Sequence record: SRR20825006_218
Direction: 5' to 3' (one strand)
DNA: 42,120 nt
Shown: in pieces, positions 11,749 to 25,229 of the stretch
Layout: each line of letters starts with the position of its first letter
How positions within the stretch are numbered: the first letter of the stretch is position 1
Program-made: the position numbers and the translations under genes
Notes under the pieces: model-generated
Seen by the model: the letters and a program-made list of their open reading frames with translations, nothing else
Database searches by the model: none
What the model was told of the DNA's origin: nothing

Positions 11749-12243
11749 TTAATGCTCGTGGTGCTCTTCAGAGTCCTCCGTCATGAGTGATTTAAACCAA
11801 TGCTCAAGGGTTTCTTTTTGCTCAGCAGATAACTTCGCATCGCCGTGAGTCCATGTATACGAAGATAATGGCATTTCACCTTCCTCGACTTCCTCGGCAC
11901 ACTCATCCAATTTGTGATTTCTCTTTCCTTCAGGATAGTTTCCCCAATCCGAAAAATTCAGGTGTTCTCTTCCTTCTTCAATGTGATCGGCTAAAAACCA
12001 CGAAACTGGTGCAACATTAGAATACCAAGGATACTTAGTTTCGTGTGAATGACAATCGTAACATGCATTCTCGATCAACGTTTTCACTTCATCAGAAGGT
12101 TTGTGAATTTCCAAGAAATCAAGTTCCGCAACAATTGGCGGATTCGTTTTATCAATTCTAAAGAACTGCATTATAAGAAAAACTGCCAATAGTCCAATTA
12201 GTATCTTCTTTCCTATTTTACGCTTTTTTGTTGCCATGATCAA
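11749..12243 (-). CDS. Haem-binding domain protein (monohaem cytochrome c, Haem_bd family)
   Basis: N-terminal anchor, ACYDCHS (CxxCH), YPWYS.VAPVSW, LNFSDW, EMPLSSY. Confidence 0.9.
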   Translation of the reverse strand: MIMATKKRKIGKKILIGLLAVFLIMQFFRIDKTNPPIVAELDFLEIHKPSDEVKTLIENACYDCHSHETKYPWYSNVAPVSWFLADHIEEGREHLNFSDWGNYPEGKRNHKLDECAEEVEEGEMPLSSYTWTHGDAKLSAEQKETLEHWFKSLMTEDSEEHHEH

Positions 12244-12335
12244 TGATTTGAGACGAATCTAGTAATTATTCAGAAAAAAGCACCCTCTATTACCCGAACT
12301 ATTTGTTCAACCATACAAAATACTAACCTCTTAAA

Positions 12336-12704
12336 TCAAACTCCCGCCTTTTGAAAAATAACCTGAAGCTCTTTGTCTATCGGAAACGGTTTCATTGGTG
12401 GGACATTTGCTCCTCCTGGATTACCAACAGGAACTTTTCCAACGAAAGATTTAACTCCCCCAACGATCAATCGAGGAAGTTGCCCGAAAATTTCTTTTCC
12501 ACTCTTAATTTTGAATCCAAACTGCAACATTTTCCAATGCACATACGTGTGTGCGAATGGATATTTCTGACCAATAATGTGCGCTCTTTCCAGATGATTC
12601 CATGCTAGAGAGAGGTTTTCACTTTGCAACTCATTTCTGTACTTGTCAAGTTCCTCCTCAAAATATGGTTTGAGCGATTTTGGTATGGAAGTATATAGTT
12701 TCAT
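12336..12704 (-). CDS. DUF3703 domain protein
   Basis: AWNHLERAHIIGQ, H..VHWKML, P.GNPGGANV signature. Confidence 0.85.
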   Translation of the reverse strand: MKLYTSIPKSLKPYFEEELDKYRNELQSENLSLAWNHLERAHIIGQKYPFAHTYVHWKMLQFGFKIKSGKEIFGQLPRLIVGGVKSFVGKVPVGNPGGANVPPMKPFPIDKELQVIFQKAGV

Positions 12705-12843
12705 TGGTGTACTTTTTAATAAATGTACAATTTAAGAGAGTCAATTAGTGAGAGTTCAATAACAAATTTCGCTTTTTACCATCAGTCATCCAAAATTTAT
12801 GTACTTCACTCTTAAACAAGTCGAATTGGAAATTTCTGACAAC

Positions 12844-12875
12844 AAAAAAGGCATTCAACTCAATGAACACCTTTT
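12844..12875 (-). terminator. Intrinsic terminator of the ECF sigma gene
   Basis: Minus strand AAAAGGTGTTCA-ttgagt-TGAATGCCTTTTTT; the G-U pairs form only on the minus strand. Confidence 0.7.
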
Positions 12876-12897
12876 GAACTTAACGTTCAACCGAAAT

Positions 12898-13494
12898 TTA
12901 AAAATGTGTCACCATTTGGTGTTTATCAATCATTTTTCTCAGATTGATCAGTGCGTATCTCATTCTTCCGAGAGCAGTATTGATACTAATCCCTTCTTCG
13001 TCTGCAATATCCTTAAAGGACATTTCTTTAAAAATTCGTTTTTTGAGAATCTCTTTTTGGGAATCTGGAAGAAACTCAACGAGGTCAATCATTTGTTGCT
13101 CCAACTCAATGCGCGTCATCGACTCTTGCACATTTTCCTCTTCTAACTTAATCGTATGGAATACGTTGTAATCCTCTCGTTGAGAAGAAGACTCTGAAAT
13201 CATCCGTACTTTTGAGTTCTTTCTGAAAAAATCGATAATTAAATTGTGTGCAATTCTCATCGCCCAAGGAAGAAATTTCCCTTCTTCATTATACGCCCCT
13301 GCTTTCAGCGTGTTGACGATTTTAATAAAAGTATCCTGAAAAATATCCTGCGCTAATGCCGTATCTCTTACTTTTAAATAAATGAAACGGTATATTTTAT
13401 CCTTATGACGCATTAAAAGCACCTCAAAGGCCTTTTCACTCCCACCAACATATGCACTTACCAGCGCGCGATCTTCGAAATTATTCATAGCCAT
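12898..13494 (-). CDS. ECF RNA polymerase sigma factor (conserved Bacteroidota type, divergent from uvrA)
   Basis: Region 2 DIFQDTFIK...YNEEGKFLPW..RIAHN; region 4 MSFKDIA...SINTALGRMRYAL. Confidence 0.93.
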   Translation of the reverse strand: MAMNNFEDRALVSAYVGGSEKAFEVLLMRHKDKIYRFIYLKVRDTALAQDIFQDTFIKIVNTLKAGAYNEEGKFLPWAMRIAHNLIIDFFRKNSKVRMISESSSQREDYNVFHTIKLEEENVQESMTRIELEQQMIDLVEFLPDSQKEILKKRIFKEMSFKDIADEEGISINTALGRMRYALINLRKMIDKHQMVTHF

Positions 13495-19295: not shown

Positions 19296-19496
19296 TGGAA
19301 ATTATTTGGGTTAAAGATAATCCTAAATTTTATTTTCAAACCTTCACAGTTAAAAAAAGTGGGGTAATCGTTAAAATTATATTGTTAATCGATTAGGGGC
19401 TTTCTATTTCCCTCTGAGAATCATTTATTTAATAAAAAAGACAATTTTGTGTTTACCTTTTTGGGTTCGTAACATTAACAGGAAAGAACAGGTAAA

Positions 19497-20030
19497 ATGA
19501 AAAACCAAATGGATATTACCGCACAGCGTGAACTGAAAGAACTCTATAAAAAATGGCCAGAAACAAAGCGATTTCTCAAATCTTTGGGATGCCCAACTAA
19601 GGATGCTGAGGATATTTTTCAAGAAGGATTATTGATTTACATCAGAAAAAAATCTACTGAAGATTTTAAGTTGGAATCAACGGCCATCGCTTATGTTAAA
19701 AGCACGTGCAAATTTCTTTGGTACAATCAATCGAGAAAAGAAGCAAAACATAGAACGGTGGAACTTACTGAAGTATCTTTCGACGATTCGGATGAATGGA
19801 TCCAAAAGGAAATGTACCTAAATCAACTTGAGAGCGCCATTCAACGGATTGGTGACAAATGCCAGGAGTTGCTTCGACTCTTCTACTCGGCGGGTTGGAC
19901 AATGAGTGCCATTGCGGAGAAAATTGGATTAAGAAACGACAAAGTGGCGAAGGCACAGAAGTACCGTTGTCTGAACAAAGTCAAAGAATTGATCCAAGAA
20001 GAAAATCCTGTTCAAACTAGTCACCTTTAA
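19497..20030 (+). CDS. ECF RNA polymerase sigma factor
   Basis: DAEDIFQEG region 2; region 4 C..LL..FY...MSAIAE..G...VAKAQKYRCL. Confidence 0.9.
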   Translation: MKNQMDITAQRELKELYKKWPETKRFLKSLGCPTKDAEDIFQEGLLIYIRKKSTEDFKLESTAIAYVKSTCKFLWYNQSRKEAKHRTVELTEVSFDDSDEWIQKEMYLNQLESAIQRIGDKCQELLRLFYSAGWTMSAIAEKIGLRNDKVAKAQKYRCLNKVKELIQEENPVQTSHL

Positions 20031-20040
20031 TTGTTACGCC

Positions 20041-22452
20041 ATGAACCCAAATATTACTAAGATCATCGACCAATACCTCACGGATGAGTTGTCATCAGAA
20101 GATAAAGCCGCATTTGAAGCGAAAATGGAGCAATCAGAACCTTTACGAGACGAAGTCACACTCCAACAATCCATTATGAAAGGAATAGAACGAAATCATC
20201 AACGCTCAGAAATTCAAAAAGTTGCGAAACGTTACCATGGATTTAAGACATTAAAATGGATTGGACTTTCCGTTGTTGCTTTAGCTGCGATAGCTGTTTC
20301 AGCGTACCTGATTCAGTCAAACATGAATAAACCGTCCACTGAAAAAGAACAGGCTTTTGAATTGTCGGAAACCGTTACACAAACACTCAGTTCCATTCAC
20401 TACTTTGAGAACGTTCCTGTAGAGTTGTTTTCCGTTCCTGAAGGCGGCGCTGTTGAGCTTTCAAAATCTGGAGTTTTACTCTCAGTTCCTGAAAATGCTT
20501 TTATGAAAGATGGACTTCCCTACTCTGGAAATGTGATTGTCCATTATCAAGAAGCACGTAAAAGCAGCGACATTGTTAAAAGTGGACTCAGCACAACGTC
20601 TGGCGATCAATTACTTCAAACGCAGGGAATGTTTTCCGTTCAAGGTTTTACAGCCGATGGAAAAGCATTGGAATTTAACCCAAAAGTGGGCGTTTATGTG
20701 CAAGTTCCTGTGGAAGAACATCTAAAAAGCATGCAGTTGTTCGATGGAATCACTCAAAAAGATGGAACGATCGATTGGCAAAACCCGGAAAAATTGGTGA
20801 AAATTCCCGTTCCAGTAAATATGAGTGAACTCGATTTTTATCCAACTGGTTATGAAGCCAAACTGGATGAACTGAAATGGAAGAAAAACAAAGCATCTAG
20901 AGACAGTCTGTATTTGAGTTTTGAGGAGGTTAGTAACGTTGATCAACCAAAGGAAATAACTGGTAAGTTTCTCTTTGAGACGAATTGTGCTGTATGTCAC
21001 CACCCTTCGCAAGATGGAACTGGTCCGAAGCTAACTAATGTCCGAGCGAAATGGAAAACAGGAGGTGCAAAAGAAGGTTCAATTTACCAGTGGGTTAATA
21101 ACTGGCAAATTGCTGCTGAAAAGGATCCTTATGCGAGAAATGTAAGTCGGCTAAAACCAACAGCAATGATCTCTTTCACACACTTAAAGCGAAATCAAAT
21201 TGATGCTATTTTTGATTACATCGACCTCAAAACCTCTCCTGTAATGACTGGTCCAAAAATTGAAACAATTCCAATTAACCCTAATGATTCTGCTACCTAC
21301 CCTACCCTAGCTGGTATTTCTGACAACTGTTTTGAACGCATCTCCCCTTCCAAAGTACTCGCGTTTTGGAATAAAAAATTCAACAACACCAATCTTGCGA
21401 CGCGTGAATTTGAAACACGCATGCGTGCAATTCATGCCACTTGCAACGATCAAGTGTTAGAGAAGTACACGAGGAACCTCAAAAAACCGATCAGTGAAAT
21501 TGATCAGGAAGTCGTATCAATGGGATATTCTACTTTCCAGAAATTCGTTGAGGAAGGAGTTGGTGTTGTAAATCCGAATAATCCACATATCGCTGGACTC
21601 CAAAAATTCTATGAGCAAGGAATAGACGCCTTGAAAAAACGAAATAAAACCTACCAAAACCTAGATCAGAAGAAAAAGGATAGTTGGGATAAAAAAACGG
21701 ATGAACTCCGAAGCAAAGAACAACAGCGCACAGCGAAAAGAAATGTGGAGTCATTCGAAGAAGAAAATAAGTACAATTTAGACAACGTCTACAAGCAGCT
21801 CGGCTATTCGAAAGGATTTACCATCAAACGCGGAAGCAAAGCAAAAGTGGGTGCACGAACATTTACAGGTCCAGCAATTAAAAACATCGATGCGTACGTT
21901 CGGGAAGCAACAGCAAATCGATCATCAGCTACGTTAGTCGATCCAACTACTGGAAAAACGGCTCAGTTGACTTACAATAAATTCACTTTTAACGTAGCAA
22001 ATCCATCGCAGTACATTAAGTTATATGCGTATTTGTTCCCTCATGAACTCAAAAGTTATCAGCGAATCGATGGTGCGAATGGAAAATTTGATTACCCGCT
22101 GAACAATGACATTCTTTATGACGTTGCGGTGGTCGGAATTACCGAAACGGGCTATGCTTACTTTCAAAAACAGACAATTCGATCAGGTGAATTGGGGACT
22201 ATTTCGTTGGAATCACTTACAGAGTCAGATTTAGAAGCCAGCATAGAACAACTCAACGGCAAGCGAATCTCGCGAGCGAAACCGATTGGAGACGAATTAA
22301 AATGGTTATTCAGAGAAAAAGCCGATTACAAGGAACAGCAAGTTCGCAAACAAATGAGACAGTTTAGAGAAGAATTGGCCCAGGTTATTTTTCCTTGTTA
22401 CTCATTATCTGAACGTAGCTATCCAGATAATAGCCATCCATTCGGAATATAA
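20041..22452 (+). CDS. Putative anti-sigma membrane protein with internal c-type cytochrome domain
   Basis: N-terminal IDQYL..ELS.ED..AFE (anti-sigma-like), one TM (about aa 73-91), GKFLFETNCAVCH (C316-H320), GPKL, distal Met376 in AMISF, coiled-coil-like stretch. Confidence 0.8.
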   Translation: MNPNITKIIDQYLTDELSSEDKAAFEAKMEQSEPLRDEVTLQQSIMKGIERNHQRSEIQKVAKRYHGFKTLKWIGLSVVALAAIAVSAYLIQSNMNKPSTEKEQAFELSETVTQTLSSIHYFENVPVELFSVPEGGAVELSKSGVLLSVPENAFMKDGLPYSGNVIVHYQEARKSSDIVKSGLSTTSGDQLLQTQGMFSVQGFTADGKALEFNPKVGVYVQVPVEEHLKSMQLFDGITQKDGTIDWQNPEKLVKIPVPVNMSELDFYPTGYEAKLDELKWKKNKASRDSLYLSFEEVSNVDQPKEITGKFLFETNCAVCHHPSQDGTGPKLTNVRAKWKTGGAKEGSIYQWVNNWQIAAEKDPYARNVSRLKPTAMISFTHLKRNQIDAIFDYIDLKTSPVMTGPKIETIPINPNDSATYPTLAGISDNCFERISPSKVLAFWNKKFNNTNLATREFETRMRAIHATCNDQVLEKYTRNLKKPISEIDQEVVSMGYSTFQKFVEEGVGVVNPNNPHIAGLQKFYEQGIDALKKRNKTYQNLDQKKKDSWDKKTDELRSKEQQRTAKRNVESFEEENKYNLDNVYKQLGYSKGFTIKRGSKAKVGARTFTGPAIKNIDAYVREATANRSSATLVDPTTGKTAQLTYNKFTFNVANPSQYIKLYAYLFPHELKSYQRIDGANGKFDYPLNNDILYDVAVVGITETGYAYFQKQTIRSGELGTISLESLTESDLEASIEQLNGKRISRAKPIGDELKWLFREKADYKEQQVRKQMRQFREELAQVIFPCYSLSERSYPDNSHPFGI

Positions 22453-22584: not shown

Positions 22585-23511
22585 ATGACGAACACTCGTT
22601 TTTTCAGCAAAAACTCCCTTTTATTCACACTTTTTATCCTCTTCGGACTCTTCTCTTGCACGAGAAAAGAAAGCAATGAGCGTAAAACAACCATTTCTGG
22701 ATCCAATACAGAAGCTCCAGTAAGTCAACTTTTAGCCGATGCGTACTTAAAAAAACATCCAGATGCACGTTGGATACAAATAGCTTCTGAGGGATCGAAT
22801 AGCGGAATTAACGAGTTTCTTAACGGCAAAGTGGATATTGCTAACTCATCTCGAAAAATGACCCCAGATGAATTTCAACAAGCAAAGAAAGTGGGGATTA
22901 ATCCTATCGAAGTTATTATTGCAAACGACGCATTGTGCATTATCACACACCCAAGACTTGGTGTCGACAGCCTTTCGATTGAACAAATCAGAGGAATTTA
23001 CGCTGGAAATATCAAAAACTGGAAAGAAGTTGGAGGTCCAGACGCTTCAATTAGATGCTACGGAAGAAACAAGCTTTCTGGAACCCGCGATTATTTGGAA
23101 AAAAGTATTCTCGGACATGCTTCTCATTCTAAGCTATTCGAAAGAGACAATACGCAAGATCTGATTGAAATTCTTCGAAAAGATCCTTATGGAATTGGCT
23201 ATGCTGGGATTGGAAATTTGATGGAGGACGGAAAACCAACCAGCGATGTTTGGGTAATGAACATCTATTCGGAGCAATATGCCGCTGTTTCACCCTTTGA
23301 AAGATCGAAAGTAATTACAGGTGAATACCTTTTGTCTCGACCATTGTATCAATATTTCAACGGAATTCCCGACGGAGAAATAATGCGCTTCCTACAGTTT
23401 GAACTTTCCACAGAAGGGCAAGAAATTGTCAATAAATCTGGATTTTACCCAATTCTTGACACACACAGAGCATTAAACCGCGAAAATGGAGTCTACTACT
23501 TCGACAAATAA
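22585..23511 (+). CDS. pstS: Phosphate-binding lipoprotein PstS-like
   Basis: Lipobox LFSC, GSNT, GSNSGI, DIANSSR, NWKEVGG, R...SGT, Y.LSRPLY. Confidence 0.85.
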   Translation: MTNTRFFSKNSLLFTLFILFGLFSCTRKESNERKTTISGSNTEAPVSQLLADAYLKKHPDARWIQIASEGSNSGINEFLNGKVDIANSSRKMTPDEFQQAKKVGINPIEVIIANDALCIITHPRLGVDSLSIEQIRGIYAGNIKNWKEVGGPDASIRCYGRNKLSGTRDYLEKSILGHASHSKLFERDNTQDLIEILRKDPYGIGYAGIGNLMEDGKPTSDVWVMNIYSEQYAAVSPFERSKVITGEYLLSRPLYQYFNGIPDGEIMRFLQFELSTEGQEIVNKSGFYPILDTHRALNRENGVYYFDK

Positions 23512-23616: not shown

Positions 23617-24705
23617 TTATTTCTGTTTTACCTTTCCTATTGCATTATTTTGGATCTCTTTTTCTGACGGATTTCCTTTATATAAAACATTTCCGACACC
23701 ATTTGCTTTAATATTAATGCTTCGAGTGGCATTCACCTGAACATCGCCAACTCCATTGTGAACTACATTGAGTGTATCAAAAACGAAATCGTAACCTTTA
23801 AAATCTCCAACTCCGCTGTATGATATTTCGCCTGAGTTCGATGCTCCAATTAACTTCACATCTCCAACACCTAAAAAATCGCCAATTAAATGAGTGCATT
23901 CTAATTCTAGTTCAGTATCTCCGACACCGCTCAGCCACAATCTCAATTTTTCCCCTTTAATAATCGATTGGCTTGTTAAATTACCTACACCGTCATGATG
24001 AATTTCTCGAATATCTTTAGTCACGGTGATATGAAGTACTCCTTCCTCAAGAAGCGCATCGCTTAATTCACCCGAACAATCCGTACAAAATACACCATCC
24101 TTCACTTTGTAGTCTGTAATTTCAGTGAAGGTTCCATTTACTTCCACCTCGACTTTTGGCACTGATCCTTGCTTAATTACTACGTCATAAATTCCGTCAA
24201 TGTGCACCGTATGAAAATCCTGCGCAGGAGATCGTTTCTTTGCAATGGGCATTACAGGCGCTGATGGTTGAGCGGGCTGAATGTTTAATGAAGGGTTAAT
24301 CGGTTGTATTGGAGCAATTGGCAGCATTGGATCCGGTGCCATTGTTAGTTTCTTTTTCCGTCTTGTAGAGTCAAACACAAATACTGGATCGTTCTTTTCT
24401 GGCTTCACTGAATTATCAGCAGTCAACTGTGCCTTTTCCGAATTTGGAGAATTTTGTTTCTCTGAAGTTTTGGGATTCACTGAACTTAAAATGACGACTC
24501 CCGCAACAATTCCACTTGTAATAATTGAACCTGTGATCATGATAATAGATTTTTTAATGAAGATTAATTTCAACTTAGCTAAGACACCGAGTCCTACTGT
24601 TGCCGCCGCAGCCATACCTACCCAAGCCGTTACTTCTTTTACCGAAGTTTCTGCTGGAGTATTTCTCGCAGTTGCAAACAAACCGTCTAACTCATTATTT
24701 GTCAT
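23617..24705 (-). CDS. Membrane-anchored GIN/DUF2807 beta-solenoid protein (putative anti-sigma)
   Basis: Short N-terminus, hydrophobic segments, Pro-rich linker, six GVG[DN] repeats spaced 18-21 aa, terminal YKGNP; ATGA overlap with the sigma gene. Confidence 0.82.
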   Translation of the reverse strand: MTNNELDGLFATARNTPAETSVKEVTAWVGMAAAATVGLGVLAKLKLIFIKKSIIMITGSIITSGIVAGVVILSSVNPKTSEKQNSPNSEKAQLTADNSVKPEKNDPVFVFDSTRRKKKLTMAPDPMLPIAPIQPINPSLNIQPAQPSAPVMPIAKKRSPAQDFHTVHIDGIYDVVIKQGSVPKVEVEVNGTFTEITDYKVKDGVFCTDCSGELSDALLEEGVLHITVTKDIREIHHDGVGNLTSQSIIKGEKLRLWLSGVGDTELELECTHLIGDFLGVGDVKLIGASNSGEISYSGVGDFKGYDFVFDTLNVVHNGVGDVQVNATRSINIKANGVGNVLYKGNPSEKEIQNNAIGKVKQK

Positions 24706-25229
24706 GCTGTTAATTCTTTTTGTTTCACATTGTCGGTTCTAAGCACGTCTAACAGTGCTTGTCTACCTCGTGCAAGTCTTTGCTTAATCGCTGAAATCCC
24801 GGCACCTTGCAACTCCGCAATTTCAGCGATTGAAAATCCAGAAATTTCATACAACACAATCGTCTCGCGTTGAATTTCTGGAAGTTGAGCAAGTGCAGTA
24901 TACAAAAGCTCATTATTATCATTCTGTTCTGCGTTCATTGAGCGATCTTCTACTTCTGAAAATTTCCGATCATCGCTGAACTGAACAGGTTTTTTCTTTT
25001 TGTGAGCATTGGCCAATACTCGAATGGTAATTCCGAAAAGAAAATAAAGAAATGCTTTAGGTGATTCCACTGCCTCGAACTTTTCAAAGGCGATTACAAT
25101 GGAGTCATGCATAACATCTTTGTAATCTAGGTCACCATAAGTTCTTGCACGACAAAAACGTTCAAAATTTGCATGTACCGGTTCGTACAATTCCATGAAT
25201 GCTTTTTTCTTGTCTTGCTTATCTTTCAT
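24702..25229 (-). CDS. ECF RNA polymerase sigma factor
   Basis: DVMHDS...AFEKF, AFLYFLFGI..R, LPEIQRE..VL.EISGFSIAEIA......AIKQRLARGR. Confidence 0.92.
   Translation of the reverse strand: MKDKQDKKKAFMELYEPVHANFERFCRARTYGDLDYKDVMHDSIVIAFEKFEAVESPKAFLYFLFGITIRVLANAHKKKKPVQFSDDRKFSEVEDRSMNAEQNDNNELLYTALAQLPEIQRETIVLYEISGFSIAEIAELQGAGISAIKQRLARGRQALLDVLRTDNVKQKELTA

Follow-up and report, generated by a model that had tools for sequence, protein, structure and literature searches.

A divergent ECF sigma factor and its probable single-pass anti-sigma partner, with an exchangeable class I cytochrome c module as a possible redox input

Pairs of extracytoplasmic function (ECF) sigma factors and anti-sigma factors are among the commonest signalling devices of bacteria, and the signal they respond to is mostly not known. 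Here we describe such a pair in a stretch of 42,120 nucleotides from sequence record SRR20825006_218 (the window). A divergent ECF-type sigma gene is followed on the same strand, after a gap of 10 nt, by an open reading frame (ORF) of 803 amino acids (aa), the product of which consists of a short cytoplasmic domain, one transmembrane helix and a large periplasmic part where a class I cytochrome c lies between two conserved domains, A and B. A first-pass annotation, made from the sequence alone, had pointed to this layout, and both the layout and all the strings quoted there were found again. We are highly confident that the two proteins form a sigma/anti-sigma pair. The fuller explanation, i.e. 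that the pair carries a plug-in module which provides a haem-c redox input, is more tentative and in our estimate falls just short of an even chance; the step by which the module feeds into sigma control is, taken by itself, slightly more doubtful still.

The sigma protein matches the NCBIfam model TIGR02937 (sigma70-ECF) over aa 19-164 of its 177 residues (50.3 bits, cut-off 42.9), and homologues with 29-54% identity lie directly upstream of the anti-sigma genes of the family. Judged by its sequence, it is a divergent ECF-type member, since the superfamily model passes while every NCBIfam subfamily model is far under its cut-off, the Pfam match to region 2 (Sigma70_r2) is weak (E 0.013) and the same scan shows no region 4. 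Among 16 sigma sequences Cys122 and Cys158 are invariant and Cys32 is nearly so; these cysteines are unusual among ECF sigma factors and could form a metal or thiol site.

The partnership of the two proteins is visible first of all in the gene order. Family loci came from two sources, a collection of species-representative genomes and genomes belonging to the family of genome G001; after removal of 5 duplicates there were 31 distinct loci, and linkage was counted only in the 21 that have at least 300 nt 5' of the anti-sigma gene. A sigma homologue is found directly upstream on the same strand in 20 of these 21 informative loci, with gaps between -52 and +130 nt, which bears out the co-encoded, anti-sigma-like partner proposed at the outset; other neighbours are not conserved around the pair in the family loci. 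A predicted interaction of the sigma factor with the N-terminal domain was a check that had been set beforehand. The complex of the sigma protein with aa 1-72 has an interaction score (ipSAE) of 0.83 in each of three runs, as opposed to 0.02 for the best of three controls; of 78 solved complexes 51 reach the mark used for this score, and of 108 mismatched pairs 2 do, although such a pass may partly reflect memory of solved sigma/anti-sigma structures. The runs have at least 89% of their contacts in common and the predicted local distance difference test (pLDDT) value of the partner is at least 85. The predicted interface includes sigma residues 5-50 and 105-166, i.e. both regions, and residues 123, 126-127 and 155-160, next to Cys122 and around Cys158, are part of it. 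Predicted contact residues include 42, 45, 46, 159, 162 and 163 of the sigma protein and 45, 54, 55, 58, 61 and 62 of its partner.

The N-terminal domain itself had been described as having the pattern of Bacteroidota anti-sigma factors (aa 10-27, IDQYLTDELSSEDKAAFE). This is plausible by sequence and is supported by structure and context, but a family match is missing: the anti-sigma model NF052375 aligns with aa 11-39 at E 1.4e-4 and 21.9 bits, under a cut-off of 100. Structural comparison by VIA-align gave MucA (8z6g_A, aa 1-48), RslA (3hug_B, aa 2-64) and RsiW (5wuq_C, aa 1-78), each at Z 5.5, a value that is within the chance range for helical segments. This limit, the possible memory effect in the predicted complex and the poor Pfam signal of the two sigma regions all limit the case for the pairing. 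There is no cysteine in aa 1-72 and the H-x3-C-x2-C zinc motif is absent, therefore the domain is not of the zinc-binding (ZAS) type. The single transmembrane helix is upheld by the hydrophobic stretch WIGLSVVALAAIAVSAYLI (aa 73-91), which lies inside a modelled helix spanning aa 33-94.

Some sigma homologues with 56-58% identity stand beside much shorter proteins of 315-333 aa (L130:2433-3434, minus strand; L132:629-1576, plus strand; L133:641-1621, plus strand), which have only the N-domain and transmembrane region in common with the window protein (29-32% identity over aa 1-65 to 1-110). The same promoter motif (see below) precedes these sigma genes, and the short protein of L132 has a weak WG_beta_rep match.

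It could be argued that the anti-sigma assignment is wrong and that the 803-aa protein is a membrane-anchored cytochrome or structural protein sharing an operon with a sigma gene. Homologues are indeed named 'c-type cytochrome', 'cytochrome c' or 'hypothetical protein', the NF052375 score is far from its cut-off, and the sole exception to the linkage (L110:1456-3723, minus strand) is a member without N-domain and without sigma. However, the ORF of this member begins just before the transmembrane helix, i.e. the N-domain and the upstream sigma gene were lost together, and the tight linkage with small gaps or overlaps, the contrast of the complex with its controls, the resemblance of the N-domain to three solved anti-sigma domains and the pairing of the same sigma family with shorter proteins that have only the N-domain and the helix leave this explanation very improbable. 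We prefer the sigma/anti-sigma pair because linkage, structure, predicted complex and the short N-domain partners agree. As regards the L110 member, it retains a cytochrome c (CSSCH) and both scaffold domains, which suggests that the periplasmic part can exist without a sigma link.

The cytochrome module is recognized by Pfam PF00034 (Cytochrom_C) at aa 308-394 (35.3 bits, cut-off 21.3, E 3.1e-8). Its characteristic residues are C316, C319 and H320 in GKFLFETNCAVCH, the GPKL segment, M376 in AMISF and the IDAIFDYI segment. An AlphaFold2 model of the 803-aa protein was built with 85 family sequences (mean pLDDT 84.4, predicted template modelling score 0.64), in which aa 305-400 superimpose on a Rhodothermus marinus cytochrome c (6cun_A) with Z 8.9 and a root mean square deviation (rmsd) of 2.4 over 86 aligned residues, and on 2l4d with Z 8.9 and rmsd 3.5 over 93. 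With the whole model as query, Foldseek returned nothing from the PDB at E <=0.001, its top row, at only E 0.03, being the R. marinus cytochrome c. There is just one CxxCH in the window protein, and Pfam reports no multihaem match for it. Cytochromes c receive their haem on the periplasmic side of the membrane, and the module is C-terminal to the single transmembrane helix, which places it on that same side; the earlier description of a complete class I cytochrome c in the periplasmic part has held, on the strength of the Pfam and structural matches. It is very probable that the module binds haem c covalently, with His320 and Met376 as the ligands.

The family to which the protein belongs is large. 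A word-indexed search found 238 relatives at E <=1e-3, and among the 120 of them that are listed most are called hypothetical, 'cytochrome c' or 'c-type cytochrome' and come from Crocinitomicaceae, Fluviicola and Flavobacteriales. A HMMER search over 1.84 billion representatives gave 2356 matches at E <=1e-3, and 395 at E <=1e-30, each of the latter standing for one 50%-identity cluster; of 201 genomes sampled from the family of G001, about 50 have a full-length member. The column occupancy shows that the N-domain with the transmembrane helix, domain A (here aa ~120-297) and domain B (aa ~433-790) are conserved, and that the segment between A and B (aa ~298-432) is variable, with an occupancy of 0.28 at aa 401-420. 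A CxxCH is found in this variable segment in 66 of 121 sequences, in 50 of 138 full-length representatives and in 109 of 248 pooled full-length members.

Members without the cytochrome fill the slot in various ways. Some have a short linker of 52-70 aa, others a recurrent module of about 45 aa without a Pfam match, a TonB_C domain (e.g. P0073 and P0118, 53-58 bits), a DsbD_N-like domain (23.3-24.7 bits, slightly under the Pfam cut-off of 25) or further domains without a Pfam match; the Pfam scan covered 19 selected members. Paralogous pairs within one genome often differ in their inserts, each with its own sigma factor: cytochrome c versus a DsbD_N-like domain plus a C-terminal TonB_C in the tandem pairs of genome G187, cytochrome c versus TonB_C in G001, and cytochrome c versus a weak DsbD_N-like domain in G132. 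On a core tree calculated with the insert columns removed, the presence of the module changes 67 times by parsimony (shuffled mean 81). P0001, which is 79% identical to the window protein, has the module. Direct repeats that would explain its excision were not found, only short repeats at chance level. Because the module fills a variable slot and many members do without it, the cytochrome c, one of several interchangeable plug-ins, is probably an optional input rather than the core sensor.

It is instructive to compare the module with its closest relatives outside the family. The query returned 80 genome loci, 73 of which hold non-family, ActA-like proteins of about 445-490 aa. The N-terminal ~100 aa of these proteins have a best-segment identity of 42-63%, mostly 50-63%, with the window module; the proteins then run on into c7/c3-type multihaem domains (a QrcA match is under its cut-off), and the next gene downstream encodes a QrcB/QrcC-like, TAT-variant molybdopterin-type protein of about 1000 aa. 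We take this arrangement to be ActA/ActB of alternative complex III (ACIII), a naming that derives from general knowledge of this complex and not from the label of any tool. The loci are L008-L080, e.g. L024:3899-5260 (plus strand) in Flavobacteriales, where the ActA-like multihaem subunit has an extra N-terminal class I cytochrome c. Sequence similarity indicates that the window module and the N-terminal domain of the ActA-like proteins are of the same lineage. In a domain tree of the 105 anti-sigma modules described below and 30 randomly drawn ActA-type domains (of 66), the two groups separate with two changes and one split is possible, a pattern consistent with one capture of the module and many later losses or exchanges.

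The conservation of the haem site was followed in modules selected by BLAST and not by motif (E <=1e-5, at least 70 aa aligned), giving 105 distinct anti-sigma modules and 66 ActA-type domains. The two cysteines and the histidine are kept in every one of them (105/105 and 66/66). The distal position is different: its column is Met in 74 of 105 anti-sigma modules versus 65 of 66 ActA-type domains, the replacements being His (9), Gln (8), Ser (5) and others, and a Met occurs within 4 columns in only 5 of the 31 Met-less anti-sigma modules. Since CxxCH is invariant where the module is present, the covalent haem site is under selection wherever the module exists, with a sixth ligand that is free to vary, which would be expected if the module were no longer a plain electron carrier. 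The conservation of CxxCH, as envisaged by the first-pass annotation, applies to the cytochrome-bearing subset and does not extend to the family as a whole. The window copy keeps Met376 and is near the ActA-type consensus.

A variable sixth ligand brings up the idea that the haem senses a small ligand (NO, O2, CO or sulfide) that displaces the distal residue and so triggers inactivation of the anti-sigma factor. About 26 of the 105 modules are without a distal Met, with His, Gln, Ser or others instead, and yet retain the covalent haem site, and there are precedents for haem c in periplasmic sensors: covalent c-type haem is reported in the periplasmic sensor domains of the Geobacter chemoreceptors GSU0582 and GSU0935 (PMC3460858), and a haem-c Cache domain in a periplasmic sensor (PMC12889525). 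Nevertheless the window copy has Met376, resembles the ActA-type consensus and is folded as a class I cytochrome c, not as a PAS or Cache domain. Ligand sensing fits the Met-less relatives better than the window copy, and as an explanation of the latter we regard it as improbable.

Returning to the redox input, the DNA upstream of the sigma gene offers a view of the possible regulon. The window motif ends 21 nt before the sigma ATG and has no other exact match in the 42 kb. The intergenic sequence 5' of the sigma genes has otherwise diverged, yet it keeps the form TGTTTACC-N13-AACAT(C/T)T at a constant distance from the start codon. A weight matrix was made from 11 sites and run over 746,392 nt of window and loci; all 14 matches are directly upstream of family sigma genes, although for the sites used in training this recovery is circular; L095 and L108 are new (L084 duplicates L001). 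In 10 whole genomes a degenerate exact pattern gave 19 matches versus 6 for the reversed control; 12 of the 19 sit 43-44 nt (motif start) 5' of family sigma genes, and the other 7 are no commoner than the control. As the motif recurs upstream of family sigma genes, it is likely to be an autoregulated ECF promoter, i.e. one under positive autoregulation.

Among candidate targets other than sigma genes only one recurs, an exported protein of the OmpA family (about 465 aa) present in two genomes, the orthologues being 66% identical (L111:98-1501, minus strand; L121:1535-2926, plus strand), with the motif about 34 nt before the ATG. One of these two genomes has another motif-preceded ORF with an OmpA domain, a paralogue, in L113. 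An hhalign comparison of domain A with the OmpA-family candidate was weak (probability 31%). The motif also lies upstream of an exported leucine-rich repeat (LRR) protein (L119:1-1469, minus strand), and two family pairs that stand in tandem on contig 8 of G187 (L082:1474-5313 and L131) each have their own promoter motif (L127, L128).

Several of these results weigh against a role of the cytochrome in sigma control. The module is missing from 139 of the 248 pooled members and from 88 of the 138 full-length representatives, and in members without it the linkage to the sigma gene and the two conserved domains of the periplasmic part are retained. Well-supported branches of the core tree require no fewer than 49 gains or losses, and P0002, a relative with 78% identity to the window protein, is without exactly aa ~298-400 while its downstream linker is kept. 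The proposal that the haem domain is the conserved sensor of these proteins has to be given up on account of the many members without it and of this relative. The window copy, moreover, keeps His/Met ligation, the usual state of electron-transfer cytochromes as opposed to ligand sensors, and the weight-matrix scan did not find the promoter motif in the 73 ActA-like (ACIII) loci.

All this could mean that the cytochrome c is a passenger, that the scaffold of domains A and B senses e.g. an envelope or cell-surface cue, and that the inserts have separate jobs or serve as tethers. The retention of scaffold and sigma linkage with or without the module, its very fast turnover, the clean deletion in a near-identical relative and the intact His/Met ligation of the window copy are in line with this, and the only repeated non-sigma candidate target, being of the OmpA family, points to the envelope and not to respiration. 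On the other hand, the invariance of CxxCH in 105 of 105 modules shows that the module is under selection where it is present, the replacement of the Met in about a quarter of the anti-sigma modules, and almost never in ActA domains, suggests something other than plain electron transfer, and same-genome paralogous pairs that differ mainly in their insert are the usual signature of input diversification. We consider the passenger explanation quite possible, if on balance doubtful, and give some preference to the optional redox input.

What the computations show is the architecture, the gene linkage, the variability of the module, the conserved haem motif, the promoter motif and a predicted interface between sigma factor and N-domain. 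For the redox input we infer the following scheme, haem loading, redox response, proteolysis and regulon included. The two genes are a probably autoregulated ECF sigma/anti-sigma cassette of a large family centred on Crocinitomicaceae and related Flavobacteriales. The cytoplasmic N-terminal helices would hold the sigma factor at the membrane, and behind a single membrane crossing the periplasmic scaffold would be exposed, with the surface loop between domains A and B as a slot whose accessory domain differs from member to member. The haem module would be an optional input, and its redox state may be set by the periplasmic carriers that serve the respiratory chain; as the module is related by descent to a domain of the respiratory chain, it may exchange electrons with the same partners. 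Depending on its redox state, the haem would then push the scaffold closer to or further from the event by which the anti-sigma factor is inactivated, as a redox-linked change in the inter-domain loop could alter the packing or the accessibility of the scaffold. By analogy with other single-pass anti-sigma factors, this event is presumably regulated proteolysis. Once released, the sigma factor would act at the TGTTTACC-N13-AACAT promoter of its own operon and at further targets. We also thought of a stricter version, in which the lineage captured a cytochrome of the ActA N-domain type and periplasmic redox poise directly sets the activity of the sigma factor, i.e. the protein is a haem-c anti-sigma sensor in the proper sense, which would be a signalling logic without a described precedent; this seems rather unlikely to us, although clearly less so than ligand sensing.

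The conserved scaffold deserves attention in its own right. Pfam finds no match in domain A or domain B. Domain A, when modelled alone (pLDDT 80.9), gives VIA-align rows of which the top 20 are mostly ZU5, FIIND or GAIN chains at Z 3.5-5.7, and only 5 of 48,161 chains reach Z >=5. The best are the ankyrin ZU5 domains 3ud1_A (Z 5.7, rmsd 3.1, 105 aligned) and 3f59_A (Z 5.5), followed by AnkB 6m3q_E (Z 5.2), the GAIN chains 6v55_A (Z 5.0) and 5kvm_A (Z 4.9) and NLRP1 6x6c_E (Z 4.6). The ESM Atlas lead is also ZU5 (0.76), and a Foldseek search of the PDB with domain A alone gave nothing at E <=0.001. From these models domain A is a probable ZU5-like sandwich. The C-terminal part of the motif-preceded LRR protein of L119 is homologous to domain A (hhalign probability 93.9%, E 1.5e-7), therefore the ZU5-like domain occurs outside the anti-sigma family as well.

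Self-cleaving anti-sigma factors exist (FecR-type, RsgI SEAL), and the fold of domain A made GAIN/FIIND-type autoproteolysis a candidate. It was rejected because the conserved His and the Ser, Thr or Cys are missing: there is no His among the invariant or near-invariant columns of domain A (in alignments of 29 and 85 sequences), and aa 262-272, the rough counterpart of the FIIND cleavage site as extrapolated from the aligned ranges, contain no conserved Ser, Thr or Cys. Domain B is modelled as a helical bundle, a long helical hairpin, a beta-sandwich and a C-terminal helix, with a mean pLDDT of at least 90 in most 10-residue blocks. In the whole-protein model it yields only generic sandwich matches (aa 643-727, Z about 5), and the ESM Atlas has no named lead for it. 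Its C468 and C786 are conserved in at least 90% of the 85 family sequences and may form a disulfide that ties the helical bundle to the C-terminal end.

It is also useful to compare the general features of the pair with systems that are already known. Like the class I single-pass anti-sigma factors RsiW, RslA and MucA, the window protein is encoded together with its sigma factor and has one transmembrane helix and an extracytoplasmic C-terminal part, and its N-terminal helical domain is predicted to lie between sigma regions 2 and 4. Unlike them, it has a periplasmic part of about 710 aa in which Pfam finds no known anti-sigma sensor domain and in which a cytochrome c is inserted; aa 1-70 are without a zinc motif, and region 4 of the sigma factor escapes detection by Pfam. 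The N-domain of the ActA-like, i.e. QrcA-like, ACIII subunit of Crocinitomicaceae shares GGAKEGSIYQWVNNWQ, IDAI.D, CxxCH/Met and the periplasmic location with the window module, whereas the ActA-like proteins have multihaem domains and an ActB-like gene next to them, and neither a sigma neighbour nor the promoter motif. The identity of the window protein as an ActA subunit of ACIII was rejected, given its single CxxCH and its sigma neighbour; only the monohaem module is homologous.

The Geobacter and Cache haem-c sensors resemble the window protein in having a covalent-type haem c site in the extracytoplasmic input of a transmembrane signalling protein, and differ from it in that a PAS or Cache fold is coupled to chemotaxis or other transducers, as opposed to a class I cytochrome c insert with an anti-sigma output. 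The haem-c PAS/Cache sensor was rejected as an identity, since class I cytochromes are the only structures to which the haem-bearing segment aligns. Domain A has its top structural matches among ZU5, FIIND and GAIN domains (a group known from ankyrin, UNC5, NLRP1 and adhesion GPCRs), covering most of the sandwich at modest Z, but in contrast to FIIND and GAIN it has no invariant His and no conserved nucleophile, and there is no Pfam ZU5 match. In sum, the ECF sigma factor with a class-I-type anti-sigma factor is of a known kind, and the periplasmic scaffold, the insert slot and the class I cytochrome c in an anti-sigma factor are new. The statement of the first-pass annotation that no characterised anti-sigma factor has this architecture stands as far as the literature searched goes: an anti-sigma factor with a c-type haem was not found there, nor in passages of the ECF re-classification paper PMC7826278, whose supplementary tables of ECF group contexts might name the group.

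Table 1. Features of the sigma/anti-sigma locus in the window.
Feature	Position	Strand	Basis or remark
Promoter-like motif GTTTACC-N13-AACAT	19451..19475	+	same place upstream of sigma homologues in related loci
ECF-type sigma-70 family factor, divergent, 177 aa	19497..20030	+	TIGR02937 and linked homologues
Single-pass anti-sigma-like protein with modular periplasmic part, 803 aa	20041..22452	+	
Cytoplasmic N-terminal helical domain, presumed class-I-type anti-sigma, aa 1-70	20041..20250	+	fold and predicted complex
Transmembrane helix, aa ~72-94	20254..20322	+	hydrophobic stretch in sequence
Domain A, aa ~108-296, juxtamembrane beta-sandwich with probable ZU5/GAIN-like fold and two helices	20362..20928	+	occupancy ~1.0
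Class I cytochrome c module in variable insert slot, aa 305-400	20953..21240	+	PF00034, fold, CxxCH
Low-confidence linker, aa 401-432	21241..21336	+	pLDDT <50 at aa 399-413 and 416-429
Domain B, aa ~433-790	21337..22410	+	occupancy ~1.0

The surroundings of the pair in the window can be described briefly. No plus-strand terminator was found 3' of the 803-aa gene, and sigma-70-type promoter matches are at chance level. A PstS-family phosphate-binding homologue (22585-23511, plus strand; PBP_like_2 131.5 bits, TIGR02136 193.5 bits, slightly under the cut-off of 206.6) starts 132 nt 3' of the anti-sigma gene; no transporter genes adjoin it, and other loci do not have it beside the pair. A further sigma/anti-sigma pair probably lies about 1.2 kb away (23617-25229, minus strand), made up of a second ECF sigma gene (24702-25229; Sigma70_r4_2 53.6 bits, TIGR02937 61.4 bits) and, overlapping it by 4 nt, the gene of a 362-aa protein with a hydrophobic segment and a DUF2807/GIN domain (23617-24705, 101 bits). 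A third sigma-like gene (12898-13494, minus strand; Sigma70_r2 50.6 bits) is followed 3' on the same strand by genes for a DUF3703 protein (12336-12704) and a PF14376 'Haem_bd' protein (11749-12243, 172.8 bits), i.e. the region 11749-13494 is again one where a sigma factor is encoded near a putative haem-binding protein.

The family amounts to a natural experiment in which one scaffold carries a cytochrome c, a TonB_C, a DsbD_N-like domain, other domains or a short linker, often in paralogues of the same genome. It is also testable, because the cultured Fluviicola taffensis carries homologues (P0072 and P0086). If the inserts are inputs, the window protein would be the first anti-sigma factor to read a covalently bound haem, coupling respiration to transcription, and the family would be a tractable model of sensory-module swapping. 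If they are passengers, what the family defines would still be new, namely a conserved anti-sigma sensor whose juxtamembrane domain is ZU5-like.

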